A stretch of 63,009 bases of DNA, the filler included. It is 7 parts of 7 records of this genome, joined end to end, with 100 filler letters (N's around TTAATTAATTAA, not from the genome) between each part and the next. Parts side by side here need not be neighbours in the genome. Positions count along the whole stretch, not along the records: positions 46,865 to 57,512 come from SRR31156797_23523; 6 more parts are not named here. One strand, given 5' to 3'. The stretch's first letter is position 1, and every line of letters starts with the position of its first letter. Below are positions 23,752 through 57,612 of the stretch, one piece after another. Made by a program: the position numbers and the translations under genes. Under the pieces are notes generated by a model. That model was not told the DNA's origin. It saw only the letters and a list, made by a program, of their open reading frames with translations, and made no database searches.

Positions 23752-23851
23752 NNNNNNNNNNNNNNNNNNNNNNNNNNNNNNNNNNNNNNNNNNNNTTAAT
23801 TAATTAANNNNNNNNNNNNNNNNNNNNNNNNNNNNNNNNNNNNNNNNNNNN
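23752..23851. other. Artificial contig spacer
   Basis: N-run with TTAATTAATTAA. Confidence 0.99.
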
Positions 23852-29936: not shown

Positions 29937-30036
29937 NNNNNNNNNNNNNNNNNNNNNNNNNNNNNNNNNNNNNNNNNNNNTTAATTAATTAANNNNNNNN
30001 NNNNNNNNNNNNNNNNNNNNNNNNNNNNNNNNNNNN
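29937..30036. other. Artificial contig spacer
   Basis: N-run with TTAATTAATTAA. Confidence 0.99.
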
Positions 30037-30829: not shown

Positions 30830-31333
30830 ATGAAAATTTCGATGATTGTAGCATATGGAAAAAATTGGGAAATTGGTTTAAACAATCAAATGTTATGGCA
30901 TATCTCTGAAGATTTTAAAAACTTCAAACAAATAACTTCAGGACACCATATACTAATGGGAAGAAAAACTTTTGAATCTATAGGAAAACCTCTTCCAAAC
31001 AGAACATCTCTTGTTTTAAGTAATAGTGGTTTTGAACATGAAGGTGTTCACACTTTCAATGATGTTCAAGAAGCTTTTAATTTTGCAAGAAAAAATGCAG
31101 AAGAGGAACTATTTATTATAGGTGGAGCAAACATCTATAAAACGCTATTTCCTTATGTTGATAAAATGTATTTAAGTGAGGTTGATTTTGAAGGTGAAGC
31201 AGATGCTTATCTTAATGAGATTGATTTTACTTATTGGGACTTAATCGAGCAAAAAGATTATGAAGCAATAATCGAAGAGGATAAAGTAAAAAGTCCAGCT
31301 TGGAAGTTTAAAGTTTATGAAAAAAGAGATTAA
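30830..31333 (+). CDS. folA: Dihydrofolate reductase
   Basis: IG..N.MLWHISED, MGRKTFESIGKPLPNR, IIGGANIY; follows thyA. Confidence 0.96.
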   Translation: MKISMIVAYGKNWEIGLNNQMLWHISEDFKNFKQITSGHHILMGRKTFESIGKPLPNRTSLVLSNSGFEHEGVHTFNDVQEAFNFARKNAEEELFIIGGANIYKTLFPYVDKMYLSEVDFEGEADAYLNEIDFTYWDLIEQKDYEAIIEEDKVKSPAWKFKVYEKRD

Positions 31334-34300: not shown

Positions 34301-34956
34301 TTTTTTAAATCCTTTATTACCTCTATTTTTTTTAAATTATCCAAAGGTGAAAGAATAATATCCTCTAAAATATTTTTTTTATGGTTAAAAATATGGATAT
34401 TTTGTGTATCTAATTTGATTAAATATTGAATTATTTCAAAGTCACTATTAACTTCTAAAGCTCTTTGCAATGCAGTTCTATCTTTATACTCTTCAAGTTG
34501 GGCTCTATTTTTTAAAAGTAGCTGTAAAAATTCTAAACTTACTTTTTTTTCAAGGGCGTAATGAATTAGAGGAATAGTAGATATAAGTCTAGGAAGTATT
34601 ATTTTTTGATTAATAAAGGCTTCTAATATTTTGTAATTATTTATATCTATTAGAAGTTTAGTCACATTATCTGAAACCATTTTTTTTGCAGTATCAACCT
34701 TTGCTCCTATTGAAAAAAGATACTCTACAATATCTTCTTTATCATAAATTACAGCGTAGTGTAGGGCATAGTTTGAAGTTGGTTCTTTTTCATTTACATT
34801 TTGTGAGGTAATTTCTTTTTTTAACTCTTCAAGCTTATTCTCTTTTATTAACTCTTCTATTTTAGAGTTTTTTTTCTTTTTAGAGAAGAAGAATTCACCA
34901 CTTGAACTCTTCTGCTCTTTTTTATTGTTATTTAAAATTTTATCTAGAAATGACAT
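31330..34956 (-). CDS. Giant ankyrin-repeat protein (1208 aa)
   Basis: Many TPL/TAL..A...LL..GA..N repeats, e.g. VTPLMYAV, GRTLLHKAC, GSTPLL, GKTAIH. Confidence 0.9.
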   Translation of the reverse strand: MSFLDKILNNNKKEQKSSSGEFFFSKKKKNSKIEELIKENKLEELKKEITSQNVNEKEPTSNYALHYAVIYDKEDIVEYLFSIGAKVDTAKKMVSDNVTKLLIDINNYKILEAFINQKIILPRLISTIPLIHYALEKKVSLEFLQLLLKNRAQLEEYKDRTALQRALEVNSDFEIIQYLIKLDTQNIHIFNHKKNILEDIILSPLDNLKKIEVIKDLKKQTNITLDQNTKDDEKTILELVIELKQAVVAKELILLGADFSNIKAEINSIFEKGDLDDIINYIRSTDLNFIDYCSILTYEEIYNYFNSCETLKNSLVILNIIENPKLNIEQKKELILMAVKKEADVNEIDKKLNTTALLNYSKLIRETNSIDLAELLLQFGAKIEICEQSAFFYAIKSYNLNLFSLFIEHNANVNFVTKDNKSLANYIVEDEIINDDENKVVEILKLCIKNGIDLNTKSNYLVEADDEEPTLLDMFSIFLCEIRENCIEFILNENLPLDKENDYVYYAVRYLRKATVQKRVIDLNEEYEYKDFYEVKKQKDSAQALGIAIEYRKESLIKLLLDSFPNMKAHCNIKEIILDLVESRFELSTIKELIKRDPNINREYILGNKEPYTSTILLMCIKRIQDEKYNKKDKYIDILEFLLQNGANPNIQEVYKNEKIDSSTIFELLVNKDKANEKILDMLIEYGADPKIRTVVFQNSVIHNIIDRSIDVTDDTIISYLDYFDKKVGIDIEDADIDGTTLLLTACWVCKAQTVRWLLDKGADISVTGGRLNVNAIYTTLCTNRDVKAVERLNTLKVLIEYGANIEELSNNLTALMASSFYGTYICTQFLLENGAEINAKNKDNTTAVNYCVQGNSGYDSPFSVESVKSRTLLLLHKYGADLDNIPDTRKSALVTTILDNRRELFDHLLQLKVDVNKKDTDSVTPLMYAVAQGSIHFINKLLDEKSLIINEVDNYNANALFFTIYRNNTNEAISIFDKLIKAGIEESKIEDGRTLLHKACEVGNIGIIPSILEFTKYDIDETDEFGSTPLLSSVLTSYETYEFKTIKIVKLLVEKGANINVIDKEDNHILTSVIALKQINLIKTLLELGADIHTVSKEGKTAIHFLIDTTFTISEFELYLKLFSEYGIDMNYNKNIDSALLYYIKDMNFSANRTMGFLPEEIEIKEEEDAIVNLLIKYGASVEVALEQAIKNSESKDIIDYLKKKEN

Positions 34957-37900
34957 TAGAAAGACTCCATAAATGAGTTTAAATATGAATCCTCTCCATA
35001 CTCTTTGGCAATTGATTTGGCCTCTTCTATATTTGCACCATTTGAAATCATTTTTGTAAAGAAGTACTCAAAAAACTCAGTATTAGATTCATAAACATTT
35101 TCAAAATAGTTTTGAAGTAGTAGAGCCATAGGTGAATCACCATTTGAATCTTTTTGGTTGATATCTAGGGCATTTTCTAAACCAACTAAATATTCAAAGA
35201 CTAAATCATAGTGGTTAATAGCACAATGGTGAAGTAGATTTCTACCATTATTATCTATAGCATCTTGTTTATTAGCCCCTAAAGAGATTAAAATTTTAAT
35301 AGCTTCAAGTCTTTGCTCTTGAGGAATATTAAGATTAGATTGTAAAGTCCAAGATAATGCACTAAGACCAAAACTATCTTTTGTATTGATATCCTCAACA
35401 AAATTAAGAAGATACTCAAAAAGATTGTAGTGGCAAAAATATGAAGCAAAAATAAGAGGATTCATTCCATTTTCAAGATTTTTAAAAGGAACACCATTCT
35501 CTTTAAGATAATCAATCAAATCAATAAGATTAGAATCATTATCCCTTTTAATAGCTTTGTAAATAAGATTTTCACCATTGCTGTCTTCAACAAGAAGATT
35601 AATATTTTCATTTTGAAGAAGAGTATTAGCAAAATATAAATCACTAAACTCAATTGCAACCATAATAGGAGTAACACCATTTCTATCAGCAGTGTTAATA
35701 TCAATTTCAAGTTGTAAAAGAGTATTAAATATAGTTTTAAAGTTGTAACCAATAGCATTGTTTAGAATAGTAGAGCCTTCAAGAGGAACATTATCTAAAT
35801 CGCAAGCATAATCCTTTAGAACTGCTAGGATTTTTGATTTGTTCTCCTGAAAGTTCTCTTTGTCATCATAACTATAATTTTTACTATGAAAATCACTTGG
35901 TATCATAATATTAGCTGCATTACAAGCAGACTCATTTTTGCTATTAGCATTAGCACCATTTTCTAAAAGGGTAACTAAAGCTTCAAAGCAACCATATTTA
36001 GCAGCACTCATCACAGGAGTTAGTTGTTCAGAGTCAAGTTGTTCTAAATCAACTCCCGCATCAATTAATACTTTTACAGTCTGGGCTCTTTTTGTTTTAT
36101 TTAGGTGTGGATAGTTAGAGATTGCCTTATGAATAGCAGGAGAGTTATCAAAACCTCCCACAAGATGAACATCACTTCCTAACTCAATTAGAAACTTTAG
36201 ACATTTTGGTAAGCATTCTGTTGAAGCTTTTAGAAGTAGGGTGTCCCCTTGGGTATTTTGTTGTTCTACATCTATTTTGCATTTTTTACTGAAAAGTTTT
36301 AGATGTTTTAAAATAGCTTCATCACTTAAGCCTCTAACCCCTAAGCATGAGCAAATTATAGATTCATTTCGTCCACCTCTTTGCTCATTTAAATCAATAT
36401 TTCCCTTATCAATTAGAATATTAAGTAAGTTTTCCTCAAAACTCTCTTCAAAAGCATATAAAAGTGGCTGCTCTTCTTTTATTGCTGCGTTTCCTAAGTT
36501 TGTCTTAATAAGAGGAATATTTGCCTCTGCACTATTTTCTAATAAACAATCCACAAGTGGAGTTATTATCTTTGTTGAAATATTTCCCAGACAAGCTAAA
36601 ACGGCAATCAAAGAGGTCTCTTTTGTTGTGATTTTCTCTTCTGTCGAGGGATTTGTTTTAGTGCAATAATATGCTCTATTTAAATCTGGATCTTTCTCTA
36701 TTAATCTTTTTATAAACTCAACACTAAAGTTGTTTGAAAGAGCCATCTCTATTAGTGATCTATGTTCTGTATATGTTTTCATATTTGGGTAGTTATCTAG
36801 CAGATATTGTGCGAGTTCTTTTCTCTCCCAATTTATTGCCATATCCAAAGCTTGAGCACTATAGTGGTATTTTTTTTCATCAATCTCTACAGAATAATAA
36901 AAATCACTTGTATAGTTTGGATTTTTTTCAATTAGAAGTTTGCATAACCCATCATTTGCTTTTTTTGCAAACATAAAACTAATTTGATCACCTAGCTCTA
37001 CCTCTTTATATGTTTTAAGAATATACTCCAAAAAAGGATGGTTATTCTCATCATTTAAAAGTAAATCTATTATTGAGCTTGTAGGTGATGTATTATTACT
37101 ATTTGCTGCAACTTTCTGGTTTATATCTAAGCCTAGTTCCATTAGAACTTTAAGCATTTTGATTTTATCTTCAATAGTTTGTAAAAATCTAAAACCAACA
37201 AGACCACTAATTGCTCCACGACCATCTTTATTTATCTCATTTATATCTATATTTTTATCATTTACTAAATGTCTTGTAAGGGGTATTTGATTTAAAAATA
37301 CACTATTTGCAATTGAAGAGTTATCACCAAAGTTATAAATTGCTCCATTATCAAATAGAAAATCGATAAAAGAGAAATCTTCTCCTACTATATAACTTCT
37401 ACAATAGTATTGTAGAACTGTTAAATGCTCTGTATCGTTGTTTTGTTCATTTATATCACAACCTTTATCTAAAGCAATTTTACAAAGCTCTATTTTCTCA
37501 CTATTTTCAATTAGTACATTTTCACATATCAAGGTTAGCATTTGCATATTTTTAAGATCTTCAAATTTGAAAAAGAGTTTTTTAAAATCCTCAAAGGTTA
37601 AAAAAGTTGAAAAATATCTATAATCTTTTAGTGGTTGTTTTTCCAATAAAAGATTTGACATCTTTGCTATTTCTTTTTCTGTTAAAAAAATCTCTTTATA
37701 AAACCTATGGATTGTTTTTATTGAGGCCCCATAAGATAGAAATAGTTCGATTAGATATTTGTTTTGAGTATCATAGGCTTTTTCTAAAAGAGATTTTTGC
37801 CCATCAATCTCTTCATTTAAATCAATATCTTTAGTTTTTAAAAGATAGGTTATTATGTCAATTTTTAATTGGTATGTTATATTCTCATCTTCAACTAGTT

Positions 37901-38333
37901 GATGTAAAATAGGTAGTTTTGATACGCTATTTTTTAAAATATCATTATCAATTAATAGTTTAAATATTTTTAAATCTGCTTTTATATCTAAGGCAGTTTC
38001 AAAGGGACTTAATCCATATTTATACTCTTTTGTAAATGCATCATTCTTTATTATATATGTAATAACATCTAAATTTGAAGTCTCATTTAAGCAGTAAGAC
38101 AAAATGTTTAGATTATCTATATTGTTGGGAATAGGTGAATTTAAACCTAAAATATATTCTAAAAAACTTTTATTTTCGCTTTTTATTCCTAAGTGTAAGA
38201 AATTATTAATATTTTTTTTTATGCTGATATTATTTTTGTCTAAATATTTTATAGTCTTTTTTATTTTTCCTTTTAATATTAATGATTCTAAATCTCCATT
38301 ATTATTAAAAGAGAAGAAATTTTTTAATTGCAT
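34956..38333 (-). CDS. Giant ankyrin-repeat protein (1125 aa), paralog of its neighbour
   Basis: GDTLLLKA, LTPVMSAA, GVTPIMVA, GRNLLHHCA; 1-nt stop/start overlap with the next gene. Confidence 0.9.
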   Translation of the reverse strand: MQLKNFFSFNNNGDLESLILKGKIKKTIKYLDKNNISIKKNINNFLHLGIKSENKSFLEYILGLNSPIPNNIDNLNILSYCLNETSNLDVITYIIKNDAFTKEYKYGLSPFETALDIKADLKIFKLLIDNDILKNSVSKLPILHQLVEDENITYQLKIDIITYLLKTKDIDLNEEIDGQKSLLEKAYDTQNKYLIELFLSYGASIKTIHRFYKEIFLTEKEIAKMSNLLLEKQPLKDYRYFSTFLTFEDFKKLFFKFEDLKNMQMLTLICENVLIENSEKIELCKIALDKGCDINEQNNDTEHLTVLQYYCRSYIVGEDFSFIDFLFDNGAIYNFGDNSSIANSVFLNQIPLTRHLVNDKNIDINEINKDGRGAISGLVGFRFLQTIEDKIKMLKVLMELGLDINQKVAANSNNTSPTSSIIDLLLNDENNHPFLEYILKTYKEVELGDQISFMFAKKANDGLCKLLIEKNPNYTSDFYYSVEIDEKKYHYSAQALDMAINWERKELAQYLLDNYPNMKTYTEHRSLIEMALSNNFSVEFIKRLIEKDPDLNRAYYCTKTNPSTEEKITTKETSLIAVLACLGNISTKIITPLVDCLLENSAEANIPLIKTNLGNAAIKEEQPLLYAFEESFEENLLNILIDKGNIDLNEQRGGRNESIICSCLGVRGLSDEAILKHLKLFSKKCKIDVEQQNTQGDTLLLKASTECLPKCLKFLIELGSDVHLVGGFDNSPAIHKAISNYPHLNKTKRAQTVKVLIDAGVDLEQLDSEQLTPVMSAAKYGCFEALVTLLENGANANSKNESACNAANIMIPSDFHSKNYSYDDKENFQENKSKILAVLKDYACDLDNVPLEGSTILNNAIGYNFKTIFNTLLQLEIDINTADRNGVTPIMVAIEFSDLYFANTLLQNENINLLVEDSNGENLIYKAIKRDNDSNLIDLIDYLKENGVPFKNLENGMNPLIFASYFCHYNLFEYLLNFVEDINTKDSFGLSALSWTLQSNLNIPQEQRLEAIKILISLGANKQDAIDNNGRNLLHHCAINHYDLVFEYLVGLENALDINQKDSNGDSPMALLLQNYFENVYESNTEFFEYFFTKMISNGANIEEAKSIAKEYGEDSYLNSFMESF

Positions 38334-46764: not shown

Positions 46765-46864
46765 NNNNNNNNNNNNNNNNNNNNNNNNNNNNNNNNNNNN
46801 NNNNNNNNTTAATTAATTAANNNNNNNNNNNNNNNNNNNNNNNNNNNNNNNNNNNNNNNNNNNN
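46765..46864. other. Artificial contig spacer
   Basis: N-run with TTAATTAATTAA. Confidence 0.99.
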
Positions 46865-46894
46865 CCCATCTTCTATAGAAGATGGGGGAATTTT

Positions 46895-47758
46895 TTAATG
46901 TGTGTTCGGACGGGCGTGGAAAATGAATTTTCCGTCCTGTTCTTCGGCAACAGCTTTCAGCCGTGGCGGGATATTGCGATATTTTACAGTCGGATGACCT
47001 AGAAATAAGGCTCCATGGGCCATGTACCCTTCGGGGACACCTAAGTAGTCCAGCACTTTTGTGCTGTAGGCCGCAGCTAGCACTATATATCCGGCCCAGC
47101 AGGTTCCATATCCTTTGGCATGGGCTGCTAGTTCTAGGGTGTTGGTGGCGATTACCGTGTCCGCCTGCGGGGTTATGCCCAGCTTAGGTGCCCATGCAAT
47201 CGTAACTGCCGGAGCATCGCGGCAGATGACATCCTTGCCTTTTTTCCAGGCATTGACCAATCCGGCAAGGAACAGCTTTTCCGCCAGCGGGTTTTTCTTC
47301 TGCACCATTTCTTCCATCCATTCAACAACGATCGCGCCCAGTTCGTGGACTTTTTCCGCTGTGTTGAGGACCGTCCATGATACAGGCTGGGCATTGTGCC
47401 CGGAAGGGGCGTAGGCAGCAGTGTGGATAAGCTCACCGATTTCCTGCGCGCTGATATTTTTCTTTTTGAATTTTCGCACGGAGCGTCGGGTTTTGATAAG
47501 TGTTTCAACGGTAGCAGGTTCGGGCATATCGTCTTGGTTGTAGGGAGCTGCCGCTTGTTTTTCAAACGCACTCAGGGTGATGGCCCCGGTGGGGCAGACG
47601 GCCATACAGTGACCGCAATTAATACAGTAGTTAGTTTTTTTGGGGTGGACTACGGGGACTTGCCCTTTTTCTTCTACGGTCAGGACCATGAGCGGGCATT
47701 CATGTACACAAAGTTCGTCCCTTTTGCAGAGCTCAGCATCGATTGTAACTGGTAACAT
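46895..47758 (-). CDS. Nitroreductase with N-terminal ferredoxin-like domain
   Basis: CKRDELCVHECP, CINCGHCMAVCP, RRSVRKFK, APSGHNAQP, GTCWAG. Confidence 0.93.
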   Translation of the reverse strand: MLPVTIDAELCKRDELCVHECPLMVLTVEEKGQVPVVHPKKTNYCINCGHCMAVCPTGAITLSAFEKQAAAPYNQDDMPEPATVETLIKTRRSVRKFKKKNISAQEIGELIHTAAYAPSGHNAQPVSWTVLNTAEKVHELGAIVVEWMEEMVQKKNPLAEKLFLAGLVNAWKKGKDVICRDAPAVTIAWAPKLGITPQADTVIATNTLELAAHAKGYGTCWAGYIVLAAAYSTKVLDYLGVPEGYMAHGALFLGHPTVKYRNIPPRLKAVAEEQDGKFIFHARPNTH

Positions 47759-47832
47759 TTTAGTGTCCTGTGTTTGTGTGGTGAATTTGGTGTTCGGAAA
47801 TAGATAAGCATTGTTCGTGTTTTGACCAGCGT

Positions 47833-47863
47833 AAAAAAGCCCCGGCCTTTGAGGGTCGGGGCT
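47833..47863 (-). terminator. Intrinsic terminator after the CTERM gene
   Basis: AGCCCCGGCC/GGTCGGGGCT stem with a minus-strand U-run. Confidence 0.8.
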
Positions 47864-47869
47864 AAGGTG

Positions 47870-48406
47870 TCAGGCTGTGGTGCGTTTCAGCACTGTGAGA
47901 ATTGTTAATCCTACCACAGCGAGCATCCAAGTGGCTGGGATGGGGACAGGGGCTGGAACAGACTCAAGCAATCCGAGTTTTACGTTGGCATGCAGGTTTT
48001 TGTGGCCTTCATATCCGAAGTGTCCGAAGCGAATTTTCTTGGGTTCGAATTCTACATAGAAAGCGTTTTCAATAGTCTGTGTTCCGGTAAGTGAAGTGTA
48101 ATCAAAGACGGAATCGGCTGTCAGCGGGGTGTATTCATTGTAGTCAGTCATGCCCTTGCCGGCGTAGAAGCGGATAGTTATTCCATGGTCGATATGCGAA
48201 TCAAGATCACCGATGGTGAAGGTATCGGTTGCTTGCAGATCCTTAAAACCTATGGAACCAAGGTAGTGGTTATTGCCGAGTTTCCACGTTTTGCCTTTGT
48301 TCTCCAGCACGAATCTGAAACTTGCTCCCTGGGCTATGGTTGCAAAAATAAGCATTGCAGCCGCCAGGGCAATAACAAATAAAGTTTTAATAGTGTTGAA
48401 CTTCAT
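47870..48406 (-). CDS. VPLPA/PEP-CTERM sorting-signal protein
   Basis: Signal peptide; C-terminal PVPIPATW + TM + KR; GGAGG RBS. Confidence 0.8.
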   Translation of the reverse strand: MKFNTIKTLFVIALAAAMLIFATIAQGASFRFVLENKGKTWKLGNNHYLGSIGFKDLQATDTFTIGDLDSHIDHGITIRFYAGKGMTDYNEYTPLTADSVFDYTSLTGTQTIENAFYVEFEPKKIRFGHFGYEGHKNLHANVKLGLLESVPAPVPIPATWMLAVVGLTILTVLKRTTA

Positions 48407-48575
48407 TTGGCCCTCCTGCGACTGAGTAGTTAAACTAAAGCTTATTAGTACTAGTTCTTAATAATAAAATAAGAAGAGGGGGCGGGAAGTCAATGTGTGC
48501 TCACTTTCTGTTGGATAAATAAAAGAACTCCTCCCTGTTTTTTAGGGATGAGTCAAAAGATATCTTTTTCGGTCC

Positions 48576-49763
48576 TTAGGTCAGTGAGAGCAAGGCCTGC
48601 GAAAGAAGTTCCGGGTCAAGGTAGGGAGTACTCTCCTCGCTGACAAGCTCGCAGTCGATTACCCGGATACCACGTTTATTAATTTCTTTTTTATCAACTC
48701 CGCCGGGATAGATTCCGTTGACCGAGTCCACAAGAACAAAATTAAGCACATCGCTGATATTGATGTTGTCCGGATCGTCCTTGCGCAGGTAGCAGAGAAG
48801 TTTGTTGATCTGGTCGGTCAGGGAGTGCCCTTTTAGTTCCGGGTCGCTTCCGGTGTTGGGGGTAAAAACTTTGGGACATTTGCTTTCACTGACAGCTTTG
48901 CCGATGCCTTCAGGCAGCAGGTTGGCCACCACGCTGGAATAGAAGCTCCCCAAGGGATAGCATATCAACTCAGCGCTGTTGATCAGCTTTGTCATTTTGG
49001 GGCGGATCTGGACTGTACAGGGGGTTGAGTCTTCCAGATGTTCAGCCAGCCAGAGTCTCTTGATGCCAGAACCGATAGGGGAAGCTTCCTTGCCGGTGAG
49101 CAGATGCTGCCCGACTACGAAGGTTCCGTCATCCAGTTCCGCAGCAAGATGTACGTCCTTGTTCACAGTGGGGCGCACAACTCCGCGAACTTCAACCAGC
49201 TTAGAAAAAATGTAGATCACCGGATCGATATGGCGGCGGTTGCTGATGTATCCGGCGGTGAGGATGATGTTGCCGATACTGGCTCCGCGCAGGTTGAAAT
49301 CATCCATGATGTCTGCGAATTTGATAAAGTGGTTGCGGATGATTTTGCGCATTGGTGCTGGAATATTTCGGACCAGTGGATGCTTGCACTCCATCATTTC
49401 TTCAAATTCAGCGTGCAGTTCTCCTTCTTCAGCATCTTTGGGTAGCCGATAGGAAAAAAGTTTATATATTTCAGGATTGCCGAGCACTGACTGGTCCGCA
49501 AGGGCCATGAGCCTGTTACGGATGTCTCCCACTGCCAGCATATTGAATTGGTTGCGGATGACCGCAGAGCTACCCCCTGAATCAAAGGGGGTGATCACGT
49601 GGATAGTGTTGTGAGTGTACTGGGTCAGCACGGATGAAGTCTTTTTGAGCGCAGTACCGCCGCTGAAAAAGAGTATGCGGGGCCCGAGATCCGGGGTTCT
49701 TCTATAGCGTTCCAGTTTAATCGGGTCCGGCACCCTGACTTCCCGTTCGATTTTAATGCGCAT
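48576..49763 (-). CDS. GAK system CofD/YvcK-like protein
   Basis: FFSGGTAL, ITPFDSGGSS, GDIRNRL, YPLGSFYSS; operon context. Confidence 0.9.
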   Translation of the reverse strand: MRIKIEREVRVPDPIKLERYRRTPDLGPRILFFSGGTALKKTSSVLTQYTHNTIHVITPFDSGGSSAVIRNQFNMLAVGDIRNRLMALADQSVLGNPEIYKLFSYRLPKDAEEGELHAEFEEMMECKHPLVRNIPAPMRKIIRNHFIKFADIMDDFNLRGASIGNIILTAGYISNRRHIDPVIYIFSKLVEVRGVVRPTVNKDVHLAAELDDGTFVVGQHLLTGKEASPIGSGIKRLWLAEHLEDSTPCTVQIRPKMTKLINSAELICYPLGSFYSSVVANLLPEGIGKAVSESKCPKVFTPNTGSDPELKGHSLTDQINKLLCYLRKDDPDNINISDVLNFVLVDSVNGIYPGGVDKKEINKRGIRVIDCELVSEESTPYLDPELLSQALLSLT

Positions 49764-49796
49764 TAATTTCCTTGGATTGTTAATAATTAAGGCCGA

Positions 49797-50885
49797 TTAA
49801 ATGTTGCCTTCCTTCATGAATTTCAGGCAGGCTTCGGCAGCTTTATTAAAATCCACACCGCCGCTGATTTCAATGAGAGTTGTCTTTGACAGAAAATCAG
49901 CATAGGCGTCAATACCCGGATCGACCTCTTTTGGCGGGGAGTCCGGGAGGTAGAAGAGTCCGGTCCCTTTCATAAAGGCGGGAAGCAGGTCTTTGCGCTT
50001 TTTGGGATCAACAATATTTATTTCCGTTTCAGAGTTGTCGCGCTGCCAGTTCAGGATGACCAGCCCGCTCATGGGGGCTTTGAGTATGAACTTGTTCTTG
50101 CCATAACACTCATCAATAAGGGCGTCGTATTTGTGCTCAAGTTCCCATAGTTTCTCCTTGGGCATGGATAGGAATTTCTCCTTGTCTTCAGGCGTAACAA
50201 TACAGGAAAGGTCAGGGTTGTTCAGGGCGGTTCCGGGGTTGATGCGTGGCTGCTTGGCTACTCCGTACATGGTCAGGGAATCGCCGTTGTCTTCGGCCAT
50301 GATTCGGTCGTTGCTGACAAAAGTTGTTCCACGGCTCATCAGGTGCAGGGCAAGGGTTGATTTGCCCATGCCGGAGAAACCAGCCATGGCAATGCCGCGT
50401 TCGTTTGTGATAACTCCTGCTGCATGCCCTAGAAAGCAGCCATGGTTGAGCTTGTATTCGATAAAACGGCTGTTGATGAAATTAATGATCTGATTTGAAT
50501 TTTCGATACAGGGACCAATGGCAATGTTCTCATCCTCGCCCAAGACAAAAACCATTCCGGTAAGCCTTTTGTAGACCACGCGGCCATCGGAAAGGTTGTG
50601 GAATTCTTCCTTGATTTTGGTTTTACCAGGATCAGGCTGCTTCACAGTGTATTCGAGGCCGAGGTCCACTTTAGGGCATTCATGGGCGGTGATCAGGATG
50701 TCGCCTTTGTCTGCGTCGATTAGAAATTCTTTAAAGTAGTTGGTCAGATCGTCCAGCAACTTGGTATTGTTGACCCGTGTTTCAATTATGCAGCCGCCGA
50801 AATCAATGAACAAGGATTCGGTGGCCGGGAATTTTTTGCGGTATTTTTCAACAATTGTGGCTCTGGTCATTGTTGTCCGGTTCAT
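49797..50885 (-). CDS. HprK-related kinase B (GAK system)
   Basis: HAAGV, Walker A GFSGMGKST, FVSNDR. Confidence 0.9.
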   Translation of the reverse strand: MNRTTMTRATIVEKYRKKFPATESLFIDFGGCIIETRVNNTKLLDDLTNYFKEFLIDADKGDILITAHECPKVDLGLEYTVKQPDPGKTKIKEEFHNLSDGRVVYKRLTGMVFVLGEDENIAIGPCIENSNQIINFINSRFIEYKLNHGCFLGHAAGVITNERGIAMAGFSGMGKSTLALHLMSRGTTFVSNDRIMAEDNGDSLTMYGVAKQPRINPGTALNNPDLSCIVTPEDKEKFLSMPKEKLWELEHKYDALIDECYGKNKFILKAPMSGLVILNWQRDNSETEINIVDPKKRKDLLPAFMKGTGLFYLPDSPPKEVDPGIDAYADFLSKTTLIEISGGVDFNKAAEACLKFMKEGNI

Positions 50886-51760
50886 TATCTTTTCACCTTT
50901 CTGATCACATAGTCTACGTAGTGGGCTGCAGCGTCGATGCCTCTTGCATCGCGCAGGCCGCGGAACCCACCGAAAGCAGATACTTCAAAAATATAAGGAC
51001 CGTCAGGGGTGATGGCTACATCTACACAGGTGAAATCAAGGTTGAAGATAGCCTGTGCTTTTTGGGCAAGGTCGATTATTTCCTGCGGCGGATCAATGGG
51101 AGCGTATTTGCCGCCGTTAACAGTTGTGGTGTTCCATGAATCGGTGGTTTTACAGCGGGCATAGGTTGTTAGATATTTGCCGCCGAGGAAGACAATACCT
51201 AAGTCGCTGTCATTGAGGTCGATGGTTTTCTGGATGTACATGGTATTGTACTCCTTGTGGTAGTCCTCAATGGTCTTGCGGGCATCAGGGCCGGGCTTGA
51301 GCACGAACATGCCTCGGGCTTTGGTACTGTACAAGGGTTTGAATACTGCCTCGCCGTATTCGTCCACTGCTGCAAGGGCGTGATCCACGTCTTCGGTGAT
51401 AGTGGTCGGGGGCATGGGGATATCACCCAGTTGCAGGGAAATGGTGCAGGTAAGACGGTCCAGAACGCGCAGGATGGAGTAGGGGGAGGAGAAAATCTTC
51501 ATTCCGCGTCCTTCAAGCATGCGCAGCATTTCAAGACGGTCCAGCAGGTCCGGGGAGTACTGTTTACCTATCTTTTTGATGATCAGTGAGTCGTAAGAAG
51601 AAAGGTCTTCACCTTCCACCATGGCCCGCCCGGAGGGCAGGTCGAGACGCACGTCCTGCATTTCGAATATTTTAGTTTCCCGGCCTGTTTTTTCGGCCAC
51701 TGCCTTGGCAAGCTGTTCGGAGGACCATGCGCCTTTAAGTCCGATTACACCTATTTTCAT
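50885..51760 (-). CDS. GAK system ATP-grasp enzyme (RimK-like)
   Basis: VFKPLYSTKARGM, YIQK, WNTT..GG, FTCVDVA, FEVSAFGGF; 1-nt overlap with the kinase gene. Confidence 0.9.
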   Translation of the reverse strand: MKIGVIGLKGAWSSEQLAKAVAEKTGRETKIFEMQDVRLDLPSGRAMVEGEDLSSYDSLIIKKIGKQYSPDLLDRLEMLRMLEGRGMKIFSSPYSILRVLDRLTCTISLQLGDIPMPPTTITEDVDHALAAVDEYGEAVFKPLYSTKARGMFVLKPGPDARKTIEDYHKEYNTMYIQKTIDLNDSDLGIVFLGGKYLTTYARCKTTDSWNTTTVNGGKYAPIDPPQEIIDLAQKAQAIFNLDFTCVDVAITPDGPYIFEVSAFGGFRGLRDARGIDAAAHYVDYVIRKVKR

Positions 51761-51783
51761 AGTCAGCACCTTTTCTTAAGCTT

Positions 51784-53436
51784 TTAGTAGTGCAGGATAT
51801 CTTCCGGCAGAATGAAATTGTTCCATTTTCCGCTGTATCGGTTCATTTTTTCCAGTAAGAACATGGAACGGTTGAACATTTCCTTGGCAAATGCGTAGTT
51901 GAATTCAAAACGGGTGGATGTGTAGAAAGAACGGGCCAGAGCCAGTGCCATCCGGGCCTGCCATGTTTCGTCGTTGTTCTCCTGAGCAAATTCTTCCGTA
52001 AAGCTGTACATACGGGAAATTACGGCATTAATTTTGTCTCTGATGGGTCGCTCAAAGACCGGCATACGGAAACCGGAAACAAGGAAGACCGAAAGGTCTT
52101 GAATGTAGTCAAAATCTCGGGAGCGATGCAGGTCGATGAATCTGACCCTTTCGTCCTCATTGCTGTAAACAACATTGTTGCAGTTGAAATCGCCGTGGAT
52201 AAATACGGTGAATGGGGCTGGAAGAGATTTTTCAATGGCTGCGCATTCACGGAGCAGGTCTTCGGAGGAAATGATTTCATCATTTCCCATTTGATGGTCA
52301 TTGCGGCGGAATTCAGGATGAACCTGTAACACGCCGCTCTGGCGGGATTTGAGTTGGTCCATGAAGGTGGTCGGAGTGGGGCCGTCCTTTTGGGTGCTGG
52401 TCCATACGTGGCGCAGGGTCTGTTCAAGGGTGAACAGGGCGTTTTCAAGGTCTGCGTCATCAGAGGTCAGTATCATGGTATCAAGGGTGCATCCGGGCAG
52501 GAATTCGACTAGCATGGAACCCTTGTTCTCGTCTTTGCTTTCGTGGAATCCGAAGATTTCCGGAACCATGCCCGGAAAGCGCTTATTCCATTGTTCGAGG
52601 CTGGTACGTTCCAGTCTGATCTTGTCGAGGTTACCTTCCTTATAAATACTTCCCTGAGCCACCGGAGGCGCCTGCTCTTTGTCCTTGGTCTGGACATGGC
52701 CGATGCGGCATCCTGAACGGGAACCCCAGATACCTTGAAAGTCGATGTCCGAGAAGGATCCGTCATACCCGGAAACACTCAAGGTTTGTTGCAGGGATTC
52801 AAACTGTTCAATTTTAATGCGCTCGCCGAGGATGGAAAAAATGATTGCTTCCCCGATATTGAGCAGGGAGTCACCGATTCTTTCCAGATAGCGGAAGATA
52901 AAGAGGCAGGTTACGCGGTCGGGAATGTTCTTCCCACTGCCCATTTCAGCCATAATCCGGTTGAAATTGTCTTTGTATAATGAATCCAGTCTGTTCTCGG
53001 ATTTGCAGATTTCAAGGGCCAGAGGCATATCTTCCGAGCTGAATCCTCCTGCAATTTTTGCGGTGCTCTCTTCAATAATATCAAAGGCTTCAGCGCATTC
53101 GTAGCGGTTAACGCAACCTTTGTCCTCAAGGTAGGCCATCTGGTTGACAATGTTGACGCAATGATCGCCGATACGCTCCAGATTGACCGAGGAAAGCTGA
53201 ATGGCCCTGATCTTGTTCAGCAGTTTGGGATCAAGATCAATGGAACTGTTGATGCGGGAGTATGACTTGTTTTCGATAACAGTCTTCAGGTTATCGATGT
53301 AGTCGTCGCGCGAGGTTATTTTGCGAAACAGGGACCGGGAGGGCGAAGCCACGAATTCCCGGGTAGCCTTAAGTTGATTCAATACCTCGAGGATGAGGAA
53401 TTTGAAGTTCTCATCCAACCCTTCAAATGTGAGCAT
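51784..53436 (-). CDS. PhoU domain fused to an aminoglycoside/choline kinase-like phosphotransferase
   Basis: PhoU repeats DDYID..LERIGDH and ENRLD..LERIGDS; kinase motifs IYKEG, VEFLPG, HGDFNCNN, FIDL. Confidence 0.9.
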   Translation of the reverse strand: MLTFEGLDENFKFLILEVLNQLKATREFVASPSRSLFRKITSRDDYIDNLKTVIENKSYSRINSSIDLDPKLLNKIRAIQLSSVNLERIGDHCVNIVNQMAYLEDKGCVNRYECAEAFDIIEESTAKIAGGFSSEDMPLALEICKSENRLDSLYKDNFNRIMAEMGSGKNIPDRVTCLFIFRYLERIGDSLLNIGEAIIFSILGERIKIEQFESLQQTLSVSGYDGSFSDIDFQGIWGSRSGCRIGHVQTKDKEQAPPVAQGSIYKEGNLDKIRLERTSLEQWNKRFPGMVPEIFGFHESKDENKGSMLVEFLPGCTLDTMILTSDDADLENALFTLEQTLRHVWTSTQKDGPTPTTFMDQLKSRQSGVLQVHPEFRRNDHQMGNDEIISSEDLLRECAAIEKSLPAPFTVFIHGDFNCNNVVYSNEDERVRFIDLHRSRDFDYIQDLSVFLVSGFRMPVFERPIRDKINAVISRMYSFTEEFAQENNDETWQARMALALARSFYTSTRFEFNYAFAKEMFNRSMFLLEKMNRYSGKWNNFILPEDILHY

Positions 53437-53471
53437 AATATTAGTGTCGATGTTTAGGGTTTTGTTGCTTA

Positions 53472-54614
53472 CTAGCCGGCCATGCGGGCTTTGTATTCTT
53501 CAATTACCGAGTGACGGTCAATCCCGGCCACGATAAGTTTTTTCCTGATGTTCAGGTCATCCCATGCGGGTTGCAGGCCGATTTCCCGGGCTGCTTTGGC
53601 AGGGTCCTGAGTATCCAGCGGTTTGGTCTTTTCACTCATATGGCAATCATCGCCCATGAAGATGAGCAATTCTTTGCTTCCGGCAGGGCGGGAAGCGTTC
53701 TGTTCGTTGACCACAGAAATAAGGAAATCGGTATAGCGCTGTGATTGCGGGTTCCAGACCTCAATGCCGTCTACATCGTATTTGGCCAGTAGAATGGGCC
53801 AGAACTCTTCCGGGTGCGGGATAACTACGCAGCCGCCAAGGGAGCGTGCTTCTTCGATTACCTCAGTGGCCCGGTAGAAGAATTTCAGGGAGAAGTCGGC
53901 TTTGACCAGCTTTTTTACCTGCTTGAGATAGGCTTGGATGCGGTTGATCAGGTTGTCTCCGTACTTGGGGCGCATGGCATCAAAGTAATTGCCCAGCAGT
54001 TTATTCTTGATAGAATCCTTGGGCACAGTGGACCATTCTGCATCAAGCATAGTCTGGATTTTGGTCACGTATACCCGGACCATTTCCACAAGCTCTGCAT
54101 CCGCACCGGTGGCTTTGGCTGCTTTTTCCACTCGTTCTTCCATGGGTTTGGTAATGGAGTCCATGTATTCGAAAAGTTGGGAGGAGCGGTACTTGAAAGT
54201 GTGGGCCAGCATGGATTTCAGCACATGTGCTTTTTCAACCTTATCATTCTCAAAGTGGAGCAGGAGCTGTACTTTCTGGTTGAAGCCGCTGGCGTAGCAG
54301 TCCACTTCAACTCCGGTGTAATCCCCGTAACTCATGAGCACGTTGTGTTGGGTGGGGATCATCAGTTTATCATTCACATTGGGGAACATTTTTTTCACGC
54401 GCTGGCTGATATGCGGCAAAGGCACGAATTCCGGATGCCAGTGCACGGCCAGCAGGTGTTCCTGTCGGGCATGGATTTTTGTGGGCGTAACCACCTGTTC
54501 GATCTGCCAGTCGGCAAGCTCTGTAGATATTACGTCGTGGAACCGCTCCCGGTCCTCATCAGTTATTTCAGGGGAAACTTTTACTGCCGCGGGGCAGGAT
54601 GCTGCTGCGTTCAT
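53472..54614 (-). CDS. Divergent PHP-family metallophosphoesterase-like protein (GAK-associated)
   Basis: VHWH, PTQHN, GVEVD, VIPHP, DGIEVWN, GDDCH occur in PHP motif order. Confidence 0.72.
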   Translation of the reverse strand: MNAAASCPAAVKVSPEITDEDRERFHDVISTELADWQIEQVVTPTKIHARQEHLLAVHWHPEFVPLPHISQRVKKMFPNVNDKLMIPTQHNVLMSYGDYTGVEVDCYASGFNQKVQLLLHFENDKVEKAHVLKSMLAHTFKYRSSQLFEYMDSITKPMEERVEKAAKATGADAELVEMVRVYVTKIQTMLDAEWSTVPKDSIKNKLLGNYFDAMRPKYGDNLINRIQAYLKQVKKLVKADFSLKFFYRATEVIEEARSLGGCVVIPHPEEFWPILLAKYDVDGIEVWNPQSQRYTDFLISVVNEQNASRPAGSKELLIFMGDDCHMSEKTKPLDTQDPAKAAREIGLQPAWDDLNIRKKLIVAGIDRHSVIEEYKARMAG

Positions 54615-54623
54615 TCTATCCTC

Positions 54624-55184
54624 TTATTTGTACCGCGAATGGCAGTGGGCGGTAATGCTGTTGATTTCGTCGCAGGCTTTGTGGGCGGTTTCAACATCTG
54701 AATCATTGCAGGCCTGCTGGAATTTTTCGCAGGCGGCTATGAATTCGTCATAATATTCATCGCCATAGCCTTCAAAACTGACCATAAGTCGTGAATCTGC
54801 CATGAATTCTTCCACTACTTCAGGCGGTGGGAGAGTTCCCGCATGTACGGATTTAAAAATAATTTTAAAGGACGCTTTCATCCCTTTTTTGAGATTTTTG
54901 TATTTAGGTTTGTCGCTGCTGCTTTGTTCGTCTGGCGAGACAAATTCTGCTTCAGACCTTTCTTCCTTGTCTAGGGACGTGGGCATGGGTTTGGCCGTGA
55001 CTTTTACAGCGGTGTGGCCGTATTCATTGCGGATATTGATTTTCAGCTTTTTGAAACCCTCAATCATTACAAGATAAGCGTCATCTTCTGAGGCTCCACC
55101 TTCAAGGGCGTCCGCTATTTTACGCAGGAATGCCGGGAGTTCTCCTGGCTGTATATATGTTTCAATTTTGCTTTTTTTTGCCAT
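54624..55184 (-). CDS. GAK system XXXCH-domain protein
   Basis: C-terminal TAHCHSRYK; helical bundle starting YKNLKKGMK; no signal peptide. Confidence 0.88.
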   Translation of the reverse strand: MAKKSKIETYIQPGELPAFLRKIADALEGGASEDDAYLVMIEGFKKLKINIRNEYGHTAVKVTAKPMPTSLDKEERSEAEFVSPDEQSSSDKPKYKNLKKGMKASFKIIFKSVHAGTLPPPEVVEEFMADSRLMVSFEGYGDEYYDEFIAACEKFQQACNDSDVETAHKACDEINSITAHCHSRYK

Positions 55185-55251
55185 CCCTTTCTCCTGATCT
55201 GCAAGATTGTCATGGGAATTTATTAAGCTGGAAGCTCAGATCGATAGCTGA

Positions 55252-55296
55252 GTTTTACTGTGTAAGTATCGCGAAACTATTACAAGTTTGCAACGT
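55252..55296 (-). promoter_or_regulatory. Candidate Pho-box-like 11-bp direct repeats upstream of the GAK operon
   Basis: Minus strand ACGTTGC-AAAC-TTGTAAT-AGTT-TCGCGAT-N10-TAAAAC. Confidence 0.35.
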
Positions 55297-55333
55297 TAAG
55301 ATTTAATTATAACCCGATCAGAGCTGGAAACGC

Positions 55334-55370
55334 AAAAGCCCGCTAACATTGTGACATGTTAGCGGGCCTT
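55334..55370 (-). terminator. Intrinsic terminator separating the HD gene from the GAK operon
   Basis: GCCCGCTAACAT/ATGTTAGCGGGC 12-bp stem with a minus-strand U-run. Confidence 0.85.
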
Positions 55371-55395
55371 ATCTTGTTCATATCGTGGGCGAATC

Positions 55396-55920
55396 TTAGT
55401 CTTCTGCAATGGCAAGTTCTTCAAGGTTTTTGCCTGTTTCCTGTTCAATGGCAGTCTTGATGCGCAAGGCAACTTCCTTGGATTGTTTCAGTTTTGCCAG
55501 CAACTGTTCATCGGCACAGGATTCAATTTTATGGTCAAACATATAGACAACAGTGACCATCTGGTCGCCTTTGACCAGTTTGTCGGCAATAAAGACGATT
55601 TCTTGCTCAGTAACCGGAAGGTCACCGGAATATTCCAGTTCATTATGGGCAGCCACAATGTCCGCCACTTCGTCATAGCCGTTCTCACGCACAATTGCAG
55701 CCCCGGCTGCAGCATGGTCCGGCTGGCCCTTGGCAATGTCATGCAGCAGGGCAGCAGCTGTAATCAGGGCCATGTTCGGGCCTCTATCGCGCAGCCATTT
55801 AAGGTCGCGCCCGATGCGGCGAGCGACATCGCGCACAATTCGAGAGTGGATAATGCTCGCTTCCGGTGTGTTGTTGGAGGCGAGGAGTTTTTCGCATTGT
55901 TCTGGGGTTGGGATGGGCAT
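55396..55920 (-). CDS. HD-domain phosphohydrolase
   Basis: IIHSRIV, ALLHDIAK, HAAAGA, AHN, IADK. Confidence 0.9.
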   Translation of the reverse strand: MPIPTPEQCEKLLASNNTPEASIIHSRIVRDVARRIGRDLKWLRDRGPNMALITAAALLHDIAKGQPDHAAAGAAIVRENGYDEVADIVAAHNELEYSGDLPVTEQEIVFIADKLVKGDQMVTVVYMFDHKIESCADEQLLAKLKQSKEVALRIKTAIEQETGKNLEELAIAED

Positions 55921-56018
55921 GGAGTTTATCTTCCTTACATATAAAGTAAATTGTAATTATGAGATGGATTGTGATTTCAATATTGGAGTTATTCTAATCA
56001 AAAAATGATCAGAATAAA

Positions 56019-56906
56019 CTATTCATCCACCCGCCCCTTATAAAACTCAATAAAATTCCTCACCAGCGGAGTCATGCGTTCGGGATTCCAGATCATACCG
56101 ATTTCGAAGGGGTGCAGTTCTATTTCTAAAGGTTTGAGGGCGATGCCGTCGGGGATGGTTCCGGCGGAATCGCTGCTGATTATGGTCCAGCCCAGTCCGG
56201 CGGCTACAAAGACGTTTCCGGTATGCTTGCGCTCGTATTGCATGCCTATTTTAAGATCAAGGTCCCTTTCGCCGAATATCCGTTGCATTTCATTTACGCG
56301 CATGCGGCAATAGGAATCGGTGCTGCATATATAGGGTAGTTCCGATACATCTTTCAGGGTCAGCACATCCTTCTGGGCAAGGGGATGGCTGGCTGGGATA
56401 GCTGCACATGAAGTGGCCCTGTGTACGACCATGCTTTCAAGACCTTGAAGATCAACCAGCTTCATGGTCACAAAGCCCACGTGGCGAGTTCCTTCCTTTA
56501 CTGCATTGACCTGAAAGTAGGTGTTTTCATCATGCATGCTGACATCAACGTCCGGGTAATCCTTGATGAAATCGCCTACTATCTCCGGGAATGCCGATGA
56601 CAATGCCAGATAGATGAAGCTTACTTTCAGCTTACCTGCAGTGCCGTCACCCATGGCTTGGAGCGTTGTTTTTGAGCGAGCCATGATAGCCAGCATTTCT
56701 TTGGCTTCCTGTAGGAAATATCTGCCCTCGTCGGTCAGTTCCACTTTGCGGTTGGTGCGTTTGAAAAGCTCGACCTCAAGTTCTTCTTCAAGCTTTTGAA
56801 TTTGTCTGCTTAGAGGCGGTTGCTGGATATGGAGCCTTTCTGCTGCCTTTCCGAAATGGAGCTCTTCAGCAACAGCTTGAAAATAGCGAAGTTGACGCAT
56901 GCGCAT
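56019..56906 (-). CDS. LysR family transcriptional regulator
   Basis: LRYFQAVAEELHFGKAAERLHIQQPPLSRQIQKLEEEL HTH. Confidence 0.96.
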   Translation of the reverse strand: MRMRQLRYFQAVAEELHFGKAAERLHIQQPPLSRQIQKLEEELEVELFKRTNRKVELTDEGRYFLQEAKEMLAIMARSKTTLQAMGDGTAGKLKVSFIYLALSSAFPEIVGDFIKDYPDVDVSMHDENTYFQVNAVKEGTRHVGFVTMKLVDLQGLESMVVHRATSCAAIPASHPLAQKDVLTLKDVSELPYICSTDSYCRMRVNEMQRIFGERDLDLKIGMQYERKHTGNVFVAAGLGWTIISSDSAGTIPDGIALKPLEIELHPFEIGMIWNPERMTPLVRNFIEFYKGRVDE

Positions 56907-57004
56907 AATGATACCTTTTTGGTCTCAAAAAACAGTTAAATGGTATTGGATTGATATTATATGCTGTCGTAAGTTTAATCAAACACAAATTGGAGGTAAT
57001 CACT

Positions 57005-57418
57005 ATGTACGGATTGTATTTTTCAGGTTTTGTGGGCCGGATCGTAATCGCAGCTGTGTTTGTATTGTCCTTTCTGGTCTTGATGGCGCAAACGTCTTCA
57101 GCCGGAATGCTGGTGGCGGAGGGCAAACGCAGCCATTACATCGCCAATCAGGAAGAAGGAATTGTCTATGTGATGTACGGTGATAGCGAGTGGGTTCGTT
57201 TTGCGGACGGATTTGGGTATATCAGCGGTCTTAGCACCGCTCCTGATAATTCGATCTATGTCCTGTCAAAATCGCAGTGCAGGCTGTATCGGGTGGCTGC
57301 AGACGGGAAAGTGCAGATGGTCAGGAAATTAGGTTCGTGTCCGCAGACGATGTTTGTGGATCGGGACGGGGAGGTGAAACTTGTTCAGCGAAATGGAGTT
57401 GTCACGGGCGTTAATTAG
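57005..57418 (+). CDS. Small exported beta-rich hypothetical protein, divergent from LysR
   Basis: GGAGGT RBS before ATG 57005; signal-like N-terminus; propeller-blade-like GLSTAPDNSIYV. Confidence 0.7.
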   Translation: MYGLYFSGFVGRIVIAAVFVLSFLVLMAQTSSAGMLVAEGKRSHYIANQEEGIVYVMYGDSEWVRFADGFGYISGLSTAPDNSIYVLSKSQCRLYRVAADGKVQMVRKLGSCPQTMFVDRDGEVKLVQRNGVVTGVN

Positions 57419-57438
57419 GATTGTCCGGGCTGGAAAAC

Positions 57439-57475
57439 AAAAAAGGATTGAATCTTGCGATTCAATCCTTTTTTT
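57439..57475. terminator. Bidirectional intrinsic terminator
   Basis: AAAAAAGGATTGAATC-ttgc-GATTCAATCCTTTTTT. Confidence 0.9.
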
Positions 57476-57483
57476 ATGAAAAG

Positions 57484-57512
57484 TGGCGTCCCCAAGGGGA
57501 TTTGAACCCCTG
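57484..57512 (-). tRNA. 3' end of a tRNA, probably tRNA-Glu (truncated by contig edge)
   Basis: Minus strand CAGGGGTTCAAATCCCCTTGGGGACGCCA: T-arm, GGGGAC acceptor strand, G discriminator, CCA; anticodon not visible. Confidence 0.8.
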
Positions 57513-57612
57513 NNNNNNNNNNNNNNNNNNNNNNNNNNNNNNNNNNNNNNNNNNNNTTAATTAATTAANNNNNNNNNNNNNNNNNNNNNNNNNNNNNNNN
57601 NNNNNNNNNNNN
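57513..57612. other. Artificial contig spacer
   Basis: N-run with TTAATTAATTAA. Confidence 0.99.

Follow-up and report, generated by a model that had tools for sequence, protein, structure and literature searches.

The GAK system takes its name from Grasp, Amphipathic, Kinase. It is recognized by five marker families (TIGR04354–TIGR04358), and the NCBIfam descriptions carry the words "GAK system". No paper on its function was found in full-text searches of the library used, and none was found for the homologues in Pseudodesulfovibrio mercurii when these were searched by locus tag. We examined a GAK operon of six minus-strand genes at positions 48576–55184 of a window of 63,009 nucleotides (the window is the whole stretch of DNA that was analyzed). 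Four of the five marker families are present in the usual order at 1.6–3 times their NCBIfam cut-offs, which bears out the assignment to GAK made in the first-pass annotation. The fifth marker, a small protein called amphi-Trp (TIGR04354) that supplies the A of the name, is absent here through two deletions, which the first-pass annotation had missed. GAK is a known kind of system with an unexplained function, and the present copy is a variant without amphi-Trp genes. A PhoU–kinase fusion and phosphoesterases are as constant in GAK loci as the named markers, and no GAK-specific model matched them.

Parts of the operon resemble better described systems. HprK/P phosphorylates the small protein HPr on a serine residue, and HprK/P with HPr or Crh, together with the yvcI-yvcJ-yvcK-crh gene group of Bacillus, serves as one comparison. 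Like GAK, these combine an HprK-related P-loop kinase, a YvcK-type protein and a small protein with a conserved serine, and NUDIX occurs in some loci. However, the GAK kinase scores only 30.2 bits with the HprK equivalog (TIGR00679; cut-off 240) and aligns in the P-loop region alone, no solved fold, not even that of HPr, is matched by the amphi-Trp model, and the yvc group has no counterpart of the GAK ATP-grasp enzyme or of the PhoU–kinase. The nearest solved relatives of the ATP-grasp enzyme belong to the RimK/S6 and LysX/ArgX–LysW systems. The substrates of RimK and LysX are proteins: both attach amino acids to a small protein (S6 and the LysW carrier, respectively). The GAK enzyme falls under both model cut-offs, and amphi-Trp has no conserved acidic C-terminus. 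Synthesis of the F420 tail (CofD with CofE/CofF) also pairs a CofD-superfamily protein with a RimK-type glutamate ligase. It differs in that the GAK CofD-like protein is of the YvcK type and is optional, the ATP-grasp enzyme reaches 29.1 bits against a CofF cut-off of 300, and no other cof genes lie on the 10.6-kb contig; the last point had been made in the first-pass annotation and is true, but it covers those 10.6 kb only. Finally, TrpH/YciV (RNase AM) and Cv1693 share with gene 2 of the operon a PHP fold with an inserted helical domain (Z 15–16 over 241–247 residues). Their identity to gene 2 is only 15–17%, and gene 2 forms a family of its own with at least 1611 proteins.

The window consists of seven unlinked contigs with a G+C content of 28%–49%. 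They are joined by six 100-nt spacers (N44-TTAATTAATTAA-N44) at 11151–11250, 18239–18338, 23752–23851, 29937–30036, 46765–46864 and 57513–57612. The GAK locus lies on a real contig of 10,648 bp (46865..57512; G+C content 48.7%) bounded by such spacers, and this contig alone is its genomic context. A public sequencing run that is probably the source has a Logan contig of identical length, which agrees with positions 48300–55300 at 0 differences; as the probable source, this DNA run is not independent, and no RNA run was listed for the locus. Within the window, only 46865–57512 matches Maridesulfovibrio genomes at the DNA level. Synteny with Maridesulfovibrio loci extends over the entire contig, and these are also the nearest loci (85–87% on the HprK-related kinase B, HprK-B), so that an earlier guess of a Desulfovibrio host was close.

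The six open reading frames (ORFs) are all full length and keep their catalytic motifs. Genes 1 to 4 are separated by 9, 35 and 14 nt in order, genes 4 and 5 overlap by 1 nt, and 33 nt lie between genes 5 and 6. The intrinsic terminator of an upstream HD-domain gene lies at 55328..55367 on the minus strand, with a 12-bp stem (GCCCGCTAACAT/ATGTTAGCGGGC) followed by TTTTGCGTTT. Its G+C-rich hairpin, at 55338–55367, isolates the operon from the HD gene. The ORF list and the hairpin thus agree with the layout described in the first-pass annotation, namely co-oriented genes spaced from a 1-nt overlap to 35 nt behind a terminator. The terminator is followed by a promoter region of about 150 nt and by the ribosome-binding site AGGAG ahead of gene 1. 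A conserved block (GTTGCAAAnTTGTAA...CG..A...TT) stands 5' of gene 1 at 55264..55294 on the minus strand; it corresponds to invariant columns 107–137 in an alignment of the window with five Maridesulfovibrio upstream regions and may act in the promoter region. A sigma-70 promoter scan gave no more sites than in shuffled sequence. The six genes are a real, intact and co-transcribable GAK operon.

In the relatives, an amphi-Trp gene of about 90 codons lies between the PHP and PhoU–kinase genes. The protein of the related locus L002 matches TIGR04354 with 69.9 bits (cut-off 31) and PF20068 with 36.7 bits (cut-off 27), and its gene ends 3 nt ahead of the PhoU–kinase start codon. The corresponding interval in the window is 35 nt long, and about 372 nt are absent in the alignment with L002 and L001. 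A remnant of the deleted gene is seen at 53443..53469 on the minus strand and comprises the last nine codons, NKTLNIDT and a mutated stop. A tblastn search of the window with the L002 amphi-Trp protein returned residues 83–91 only, and the marker TIGR04354 has no match in the window beyond this nine-codon remnant. Each of the three closest complete genomes has two or three amphi-Trp genes, and the second of these follows the CofD-like gene immediately. At this position the window has a 169-nt gap (48407..48575, minus strand), the site of the second deletion; about 400 nt are absent relative to L002, where the second amphi-Trp gene lies at about 10374–10568 within a 567-nt gap. Judged by these alignments, both amphi-Trp genes are cleanly deleted here, which is unusual among close relatives. 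Locus L006 likewise has no second amphi-Trp copy, with another junction and intact genes. Amphi-Trp lies between the PHP and PhoU–kinase genes in 37 of 37 other loci in which both genes are visible (13 from genomes and 24 from metagenomes), and the window is the sole exception (1/38).

These deletions raise the possibility that the system in this strain is a recently disabled remnant, in which the loss of amphi-Trp killed the function and the other genes have not yet decayed. Two separate clean deletions take exactly both amphi-Trp genes. The first also removes the stop–start arrangement before the PhoU–kinase (3 nt in L002), probably with a loss of translational coupling, and the PHP gene is followed directly by the PhoU–kinase in this one of the 38 loci. 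However, the six ORFs remain full length with their catalytic motifs, and L006 has kept intact genes without its second amphi-Trp copy. The pairwise dN/dS values against L002 are 0.04–0.10 for the six GAK genes, as low as the 0.09–0.11 of the flanking HD and nitroreductase genes; these values average both lineages, so that a recent loss of amphi-Trp would not show in them and they cannot date it. A substitute may also exist in the unseen part of the genome, as the relative G001 has a third amphi-Trp gene away from its locus. On balance, we consider a disabled remnant unlikely.

To place the variant among other GAK loci, 30 genome loci were gathered via HprK-B and 37 metagenome loci via the PHP protein. 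Our ORF calling was a crude longest-ORF procedure with antisense artefacts in G+C-rich loci, and gene counts were therefore taken from tblastn. Among the 30 genome loci, the ATP-grasp gene was found in 28, the PhoU–kinase in 27, amphi-Trp in 23, the CofD-like gene in 19, the PHP gene in 13 and the XXXCH gene in 8. Six of the seven loci without an amphi-Trp match are cut by contig ends; the seventh, L015, is a lone HprK-B gene. The CofD-like gene is absent from L010, L016 and L023, each of which has full 8-kb flanks, and by this comparison it is optional in GAK loci. In the metagenome set, amphi-Trp stands between visible PHP and PhoU–kinase genes in 24 of 37 loci, and four more show PHP and then amphi-Trp before the contig ends. 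Three contigs end too soon to judge, and in the remaining six the PHP gene is a paralogue with different surroundings. PHP paralogues with 53–55% identity were seen outside GAK loci at L046:2390–4949, L066 and L069; one of them is beside inositol-monophosphatase/CysQ-like and NAD kinase genes.

The genome loci beyond Maridesulfovibrio come from Desulfatibacillum, Nitrospinota, Thermodesulfobacteriota, spirochaetes, Nannocystaceae, Gammaproteobacteria, Neiella and Roseibium. In the class to which the nearest relative belongs, 301 genomes were sampled, and HprK-B exceeds its cut-off in 131 of them. By ORF clustering and family scans, a second locus type is found in Gamma- and Alphaproteobacteria and contains, in this order, the PhoU–kinase, ATP-grasp, HprK-B, His_Phos_1, metallophosphoesterase and amphi-Trp genes, with a SixA-like and NUDIX fusion gene after HprK-B in some loci only. 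The 13 loci with PHP and the 10 with His_Phos_1 and/or Metallophos do not overlap. On these gene counts, the recurring GAK set is the PhoU–kinase, the ATP-grasp enzyme, HprK-B, the amphi-Trp protein of about 90 residues and at least one phosphoesterase, which is either PHP or a His-phosphatase and metallophosphoesterase, sometimes with NUDIX. Phosphoesterases of three superfamilies are swapped between lineages, as judged by their distribution. The kinase and phosphatase logic proposed in the first-pass annotation holds, since a His-phosphatase and/or a metallophosphoesterase takes the place of PHP in those 10 loci.

The order of the six genes and the family names given to them were confirmed by NCBIfam and Pfam scores. 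Gene 1 (54624..55184) encodes the XXXCH protein of 186 residues, which matches TIGR04358 with 118.7 bits (cut-off 40) over residues 95–184. An N-terminal domain that resembles amphi-Trp is joined by an acidic/basic linker to the C-terminal XXXCH domain, which ends in AHCHSRYK. The N-terminal 70 residues align with the amphi-Trp profile in hhalign (probability 68%, E 4.8e-5), and the Ser and Trp residues of amphi-Trp are both absent. Residues M102, C152, C181 and H182 are invariant in the XXXCH protein. Its C-terminal helix resembles the heme-binding helix of cytochrome c'/b562 in 34 of 37 Protein Data Bank (PDB) matches at E≤10, each with E≥0.23. The match to PF07361 (b562) has an E value of 0.0034 and, at 18.4 bits, is under the cut-off of 30. 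The possible likeness to class II cytochrome c/b562 is a lead and not a result.

Gene 2 (53472..54614; 380 residues) is the PHP gene. No family matched it in Pfam and NCBIfam, with nothing but noise at E≤10, and its profile gave only noise and no PHP chain against PDB sequences. The AF2 model (pLDDT 88.5) was matched by Foldseek with a probability of 1.0 to RNase AM (PDB ID: 9etk), BAD_1165 (PDB IDs: 3e0f, 3o0f) and Cv1693 (PDB ID: 2yb1, solved with Mn, AMP and phosphate). VIA-align gave Z scores of 16.3 (3o0f), 15.8 (9etk) and 15.1 (2yb1) over 241–247 residues and 11.6 to the PHP domain of Pol III alpha; rows other than PHP domains all had Z≤5.6. Ten residues, candidates for a metal-binding His/Asp/Glu set, are invariant in 19 sequences (H58, H60, H90, E103, D105, H120, H267, D322, D323 and H325). 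A few of the homologues are called PHP by their sources. Going by the predicted structure, gene 2 has the fold of a PHP phosphoesterase in the form shared by TrpH/RNase AM/Cv1693, including an inserted helical part; no sequence model sees it. The name "PHP-like" in the first-pass annotation was thus right at the level of the fold (AF2, Foldseek and VIA), with hidden Markov models (HMMs) being silent.

Gene 3 (51784..53436; 550 residues) is a fusion of PhoU (residues ~7–220) with a kinase of the APH/choline-kinase type (residues ~270–475). Pfam finds PhoU (PF01895) in two stretches, and the APH (PF01636) and EcKL (PF02958) kinase domains. Residues 27–211 align with the PhoU structures 1t72 and 4q25. 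The PhoU part is not a PhoU orthologue by model score, because it reaches 88.9 bits with the PhoU equivalog TIGR02135 and the cut-off is 130.25. K266, H414, G415, D416, N418, N421 and D435 are invariant in 21 orthologues, so that the ATP-binding Lys, the H-G-D-x-N-x-x-N catalytic loop and the metal-binding Asp are kept. The consensus of the same orthologues also keeps both ER.GD-type motifs.

The first-pass annotation had proposed a pathway of phosphate or polyphosphate metabolism that is controlled by phosphate status, with PhoU as the sensor, and the PhoU domain and its conserved motifs are what speak for it. It had been staked on PhoU and PHP recurring in homologous loci. The two-repeat PhoU fused to a kinase does recur, in 27 of 30 loci from several phyla; PHP does so in only 13 of 30 and is substituted in 10 others. 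Association with phosphate genes was not borne out. We scanned 118 of the 128 flanking ORFs of at least 110 residues from 22 loci; six close relatives, ORFs of the conserved cluster and shorter ORFs were left out, and ten ORFs were dropped as already scanned, as known LysR, HD, nitroreductase or sensor-kinase genes, or as antisense shadows. None of the 118 was pst, phoB/R, ppk or ppx, and no pst or pho genes lie on the 10.6-kb contig. CHAD and CYTH are linked to polyphosphate. In L023 (Neiella holothuriorum), CHAD, ParA-like ATPase and CYTH genes lie directly 5' of the PhoU–kinase (L023:2324–5118), the only polyphosphate-flavored neighborhood, and a CYTH gene is near L015. These two loci favor the proposal, whereas the flanking scan and the sub-cut-off PhoU score count against it. 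We regard it as improbable, and phosphate control of the operon would be an add-on.

Gene 4 (50885..51769; 294 residues) encodes the GAK ATP-grasp ligase, a relative of RimK, LysX and MptN. It matches TIGR04356 with 472.6 bits (cut-off 300). The best non-GAK HMM is MptN (142.6 bits, below its cut-off), followed by the RimK family with 106.6 bits (cut-off 143.4) and LysX with 76.7 bits (cut-off 275.6). The nearest solved chains are LysX (PDB ID: 5k2m) and RimK (PDB IDs: 4iwx, 5zct and 7qyr). Gene 5 (49797..50885; 362 residues) is the P-loop kinase HprK-B, with 585.2 bits to TIGR04355 (cut-off 200). Its Walker A motif, GFSGMGKST, is invariant in 23 orthologues. The sole likeness in the PDB is to the P-loop region of HprK, and the HPr kinase family PF07475 gives 28.3 bits (cut-off 33.3). 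Gene 6 (48576..49763; 395 residues) encodes the GAK CofD-like protein, which matches TIGR04357 with 572.7 bits (cut-off 340) and PF01933. It also matches the YvcK-type model TIGR01826 (125.9 bits), and the CofD equivalog is not among the matches. The nearest solved chains (PDB IDs: 2o2z, 2hzb, 2p0y and 2ppv) are all of the UPF0052/YvcK type. By these comparisons the protein is closer to YvcK than to CofD, and with its absence from three full-flank loci the echo of F420 chemistry heard in the first-pass annotation is weak.

In an alignment of 25 amphi-Trp sequences, W73 is invariant and F8, S12 and D15 are conserved in at least 90%. In the 11 primary copies these four residues do not vary, and the motif reads F-x-x-E-S-L-Q-D; the second paralogue does not have this motif. 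In the AF2 model (pLDDT 82), a coil is followed by one helix (residues 16–32) and two hairpins that form four strands, with Ser12 just before the helix. Against solved folds, the best Foldseek match has E 1.5 and the best of 48,161 chains in VIA has Z 2.9; this absence of a match does not establish a new fold. No longer fused forms of amphi-Trp were found among 7999 candidates, which is weak evidence. Some paralogues (L013:7353–7817, L016:4878–5411 and L017:245–928) have long basic tails rich in Lys, Ala, Pro and Ser, which suggests polyanion binding. The orphan third gene of G001 (L034:1453–1734) lacks the ESLQD motif and lies beside a ClpB-like gene, far from the GAK locus. A table in PMC13490349 lists an "Amphi-Trp domain-containing protein" among the 20 most abundant proteins of Dissulfuribacter thermophilus.

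We tentatively favor, at well under even chances, the reading that GAK is a module complete in itself, which places covalent marks on its dedicated small protein amphi-Trp and takes them off again, and that it is without its substrate here. In complete systems, amphi-Trp would be the substrate. The HprK-like kinase, the APH-type kinase or both would phosphorylate it, and the best candidate site is the near-invariant Ser of F-x-x-E-S-L-Q-D just before the helix. The ATP-grasp enzyme would attach an amino acid, probably glutamate. The PHP enzyme, or elsewhere the His-phosphatase, metallophosphoesterase and NUDIX proteins, would strip the marks, while the PhoU domain, the YvcK-like protein and the XXXCH protein may supply metabolic or redox input. 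In the present strain, the enzymes could be idle, could target the degenerate amphi-like domain of the XXXCH protein, or could act on an amphi-Trp protein encoded elsewhere in the unseen genome. We base this reading on the way in which two kinases, a ligase and a swappable phosphoesterase constantly occur together with a small conserved protein, and on the presence of amphi-Trp in the recurring set and between PHP and PhoU–kinase in every other locus where both genes are visible. A protein substrate is suggested by LysX and RimK, the closest solved relatives of the ATP-grasp enzyme, as both modify proteins.

A more specific version appears doubtful to us. Here Ser phosphorylation and glutamylation would together make amphi-Trp a switch, with the PhoU-gated kinase, XXXCH as a cytoplasmic b562-like heme/redox sensor and the YvcK-like protein as a metabolite sensor providing the inputs. 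Interchangeable phosphoesterases would reset the switch, and the strain would be a locked-state variant. If this is true, a strain without amphi-Trp but with selected enzymes would show a second enzyme target.

Several points weigh against amphi-Trp as the substrate. Its modification and any tie to the enzymes are putative; a complex prediction for HprK-B with amphi-Trp (both from L002) gave a score of 0.00 and was used neither for nor against. The six genes are intact and constrained here without either amphi-Trp gene, an observation that a different substrate of the enzymes would explain more easily. Nucleotide substrates are indicated by the nearest PHP structures (RNase AM, and Cv1693 solved with AMP and phosphate) and by the NUDIX partners, and MptN, the best outside model for the ATP-grasp enzyme, is a small-molecule ligase. 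The C-termini of amphi-Trp are not conserved, contrary to the C-terminal chemistry of RimK or LysX.

Some of these points also favor a different pathway, in which the enzymes make and turn over a small molecule and amphi-Trp is a regulator, scaffold or carrier. The product could be a phosphorylated, phosphodiester-linked and glutamylated metabolite, similar to the F420 or methanopterin tail, or a nucleotide-derived signal. The CofD/YvcK-type protein, the ATP-grasp enzyme (with CofF also matched) and the APH/choline-kinase-type kinase would fit such a pathway, as would the folds nearest to the PHP enzyme and the NUDIX and ApaH-like metallophosphoesterase genes of the second locus type. However, the 30 loci share no conserved activating enzyme, such as a nucleotidyltransferase, and three loci whose flanks are complete have no CofD-like gene. 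The pathway also gives no reason for a non-enzymatic protein of 90 residues, with an invariant Trp and a near-invariant Ser, in every complete locus. We consider the small-molecule pathway possible and nearly as likely as the modification of amphi-Trp, because the enzymes have persisted in this strain although the small protein is gone, and because relatives of several of them are of the nucleotide or cofactor type.

Other features of the window were also recorded. An Rfam scan of the whole window gave no matches. PADLOC found no families, and thus no defense-system signal, in the six proteins and the amphi-Trp, His-phosphatase and metallophosphoesterase proteins; the NUDIX fusion gave one weak match (E 4.7e-4). 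Look-ups in a protein atlas returned only the families of the proteins themselves, and an exact look-up of the window's proteins in a cluster collection gave no entry. The HD-domain gene upstream of the operon (55396–55920) aligns with the DVU_1551-family NTP transferase model over the C-terminal half of the model only, with 145.7 bits (cut-off 315), and its synteny is limited to Maridesulfovibrio. The gene 3' of the operon (47870–48406) encodes 178 residues, has its own promoter-like site and a weak PEP-CTERM-like C-terminus (E 0.002), and is conserved in close relatives only. The end of the GAK contig (57483–57512) resembles the 3' end of a tRNA. In the relatives G001 and G003, the final 29 nt of the contig are repeated several times with 100% identity at intervals of about 172 nt; a tandem tRNA array probably broke the assembly at this point. 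The apparent contact of two ORFs at 11202/11203, one a truncated NtrC-like gene and the other a truncated RpoD-like gene, is an artefact of a join. The low-G+C contigs encode, at 19191–20534 and 31330–38333, a protein with a T9SS type A sorting domain as well as two giant proteins of 1208 and 1125 residues with ankyrin repeats. They probably come from other organisms, and the record looks like a mixed bin, because these contigs have no DNA match in Maridesulfovibrio genomes.

GAK is common and widespread, being found in many genomes of one class as well as in Nitrospinota, spirochaetes, myxobacteria and Gamma- and Alphaproteobacteria. The list of its parts is widened by the PhoU–kinase fusion and the swappable phosphoesterase, and two types of GAK locus can be told apart. 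The present operon identifies a natural variant without amphi-Trp genes. If amphi-Trp is the substrate, this strain should be without the output of the system; if it is not, the enzymes act on something else.

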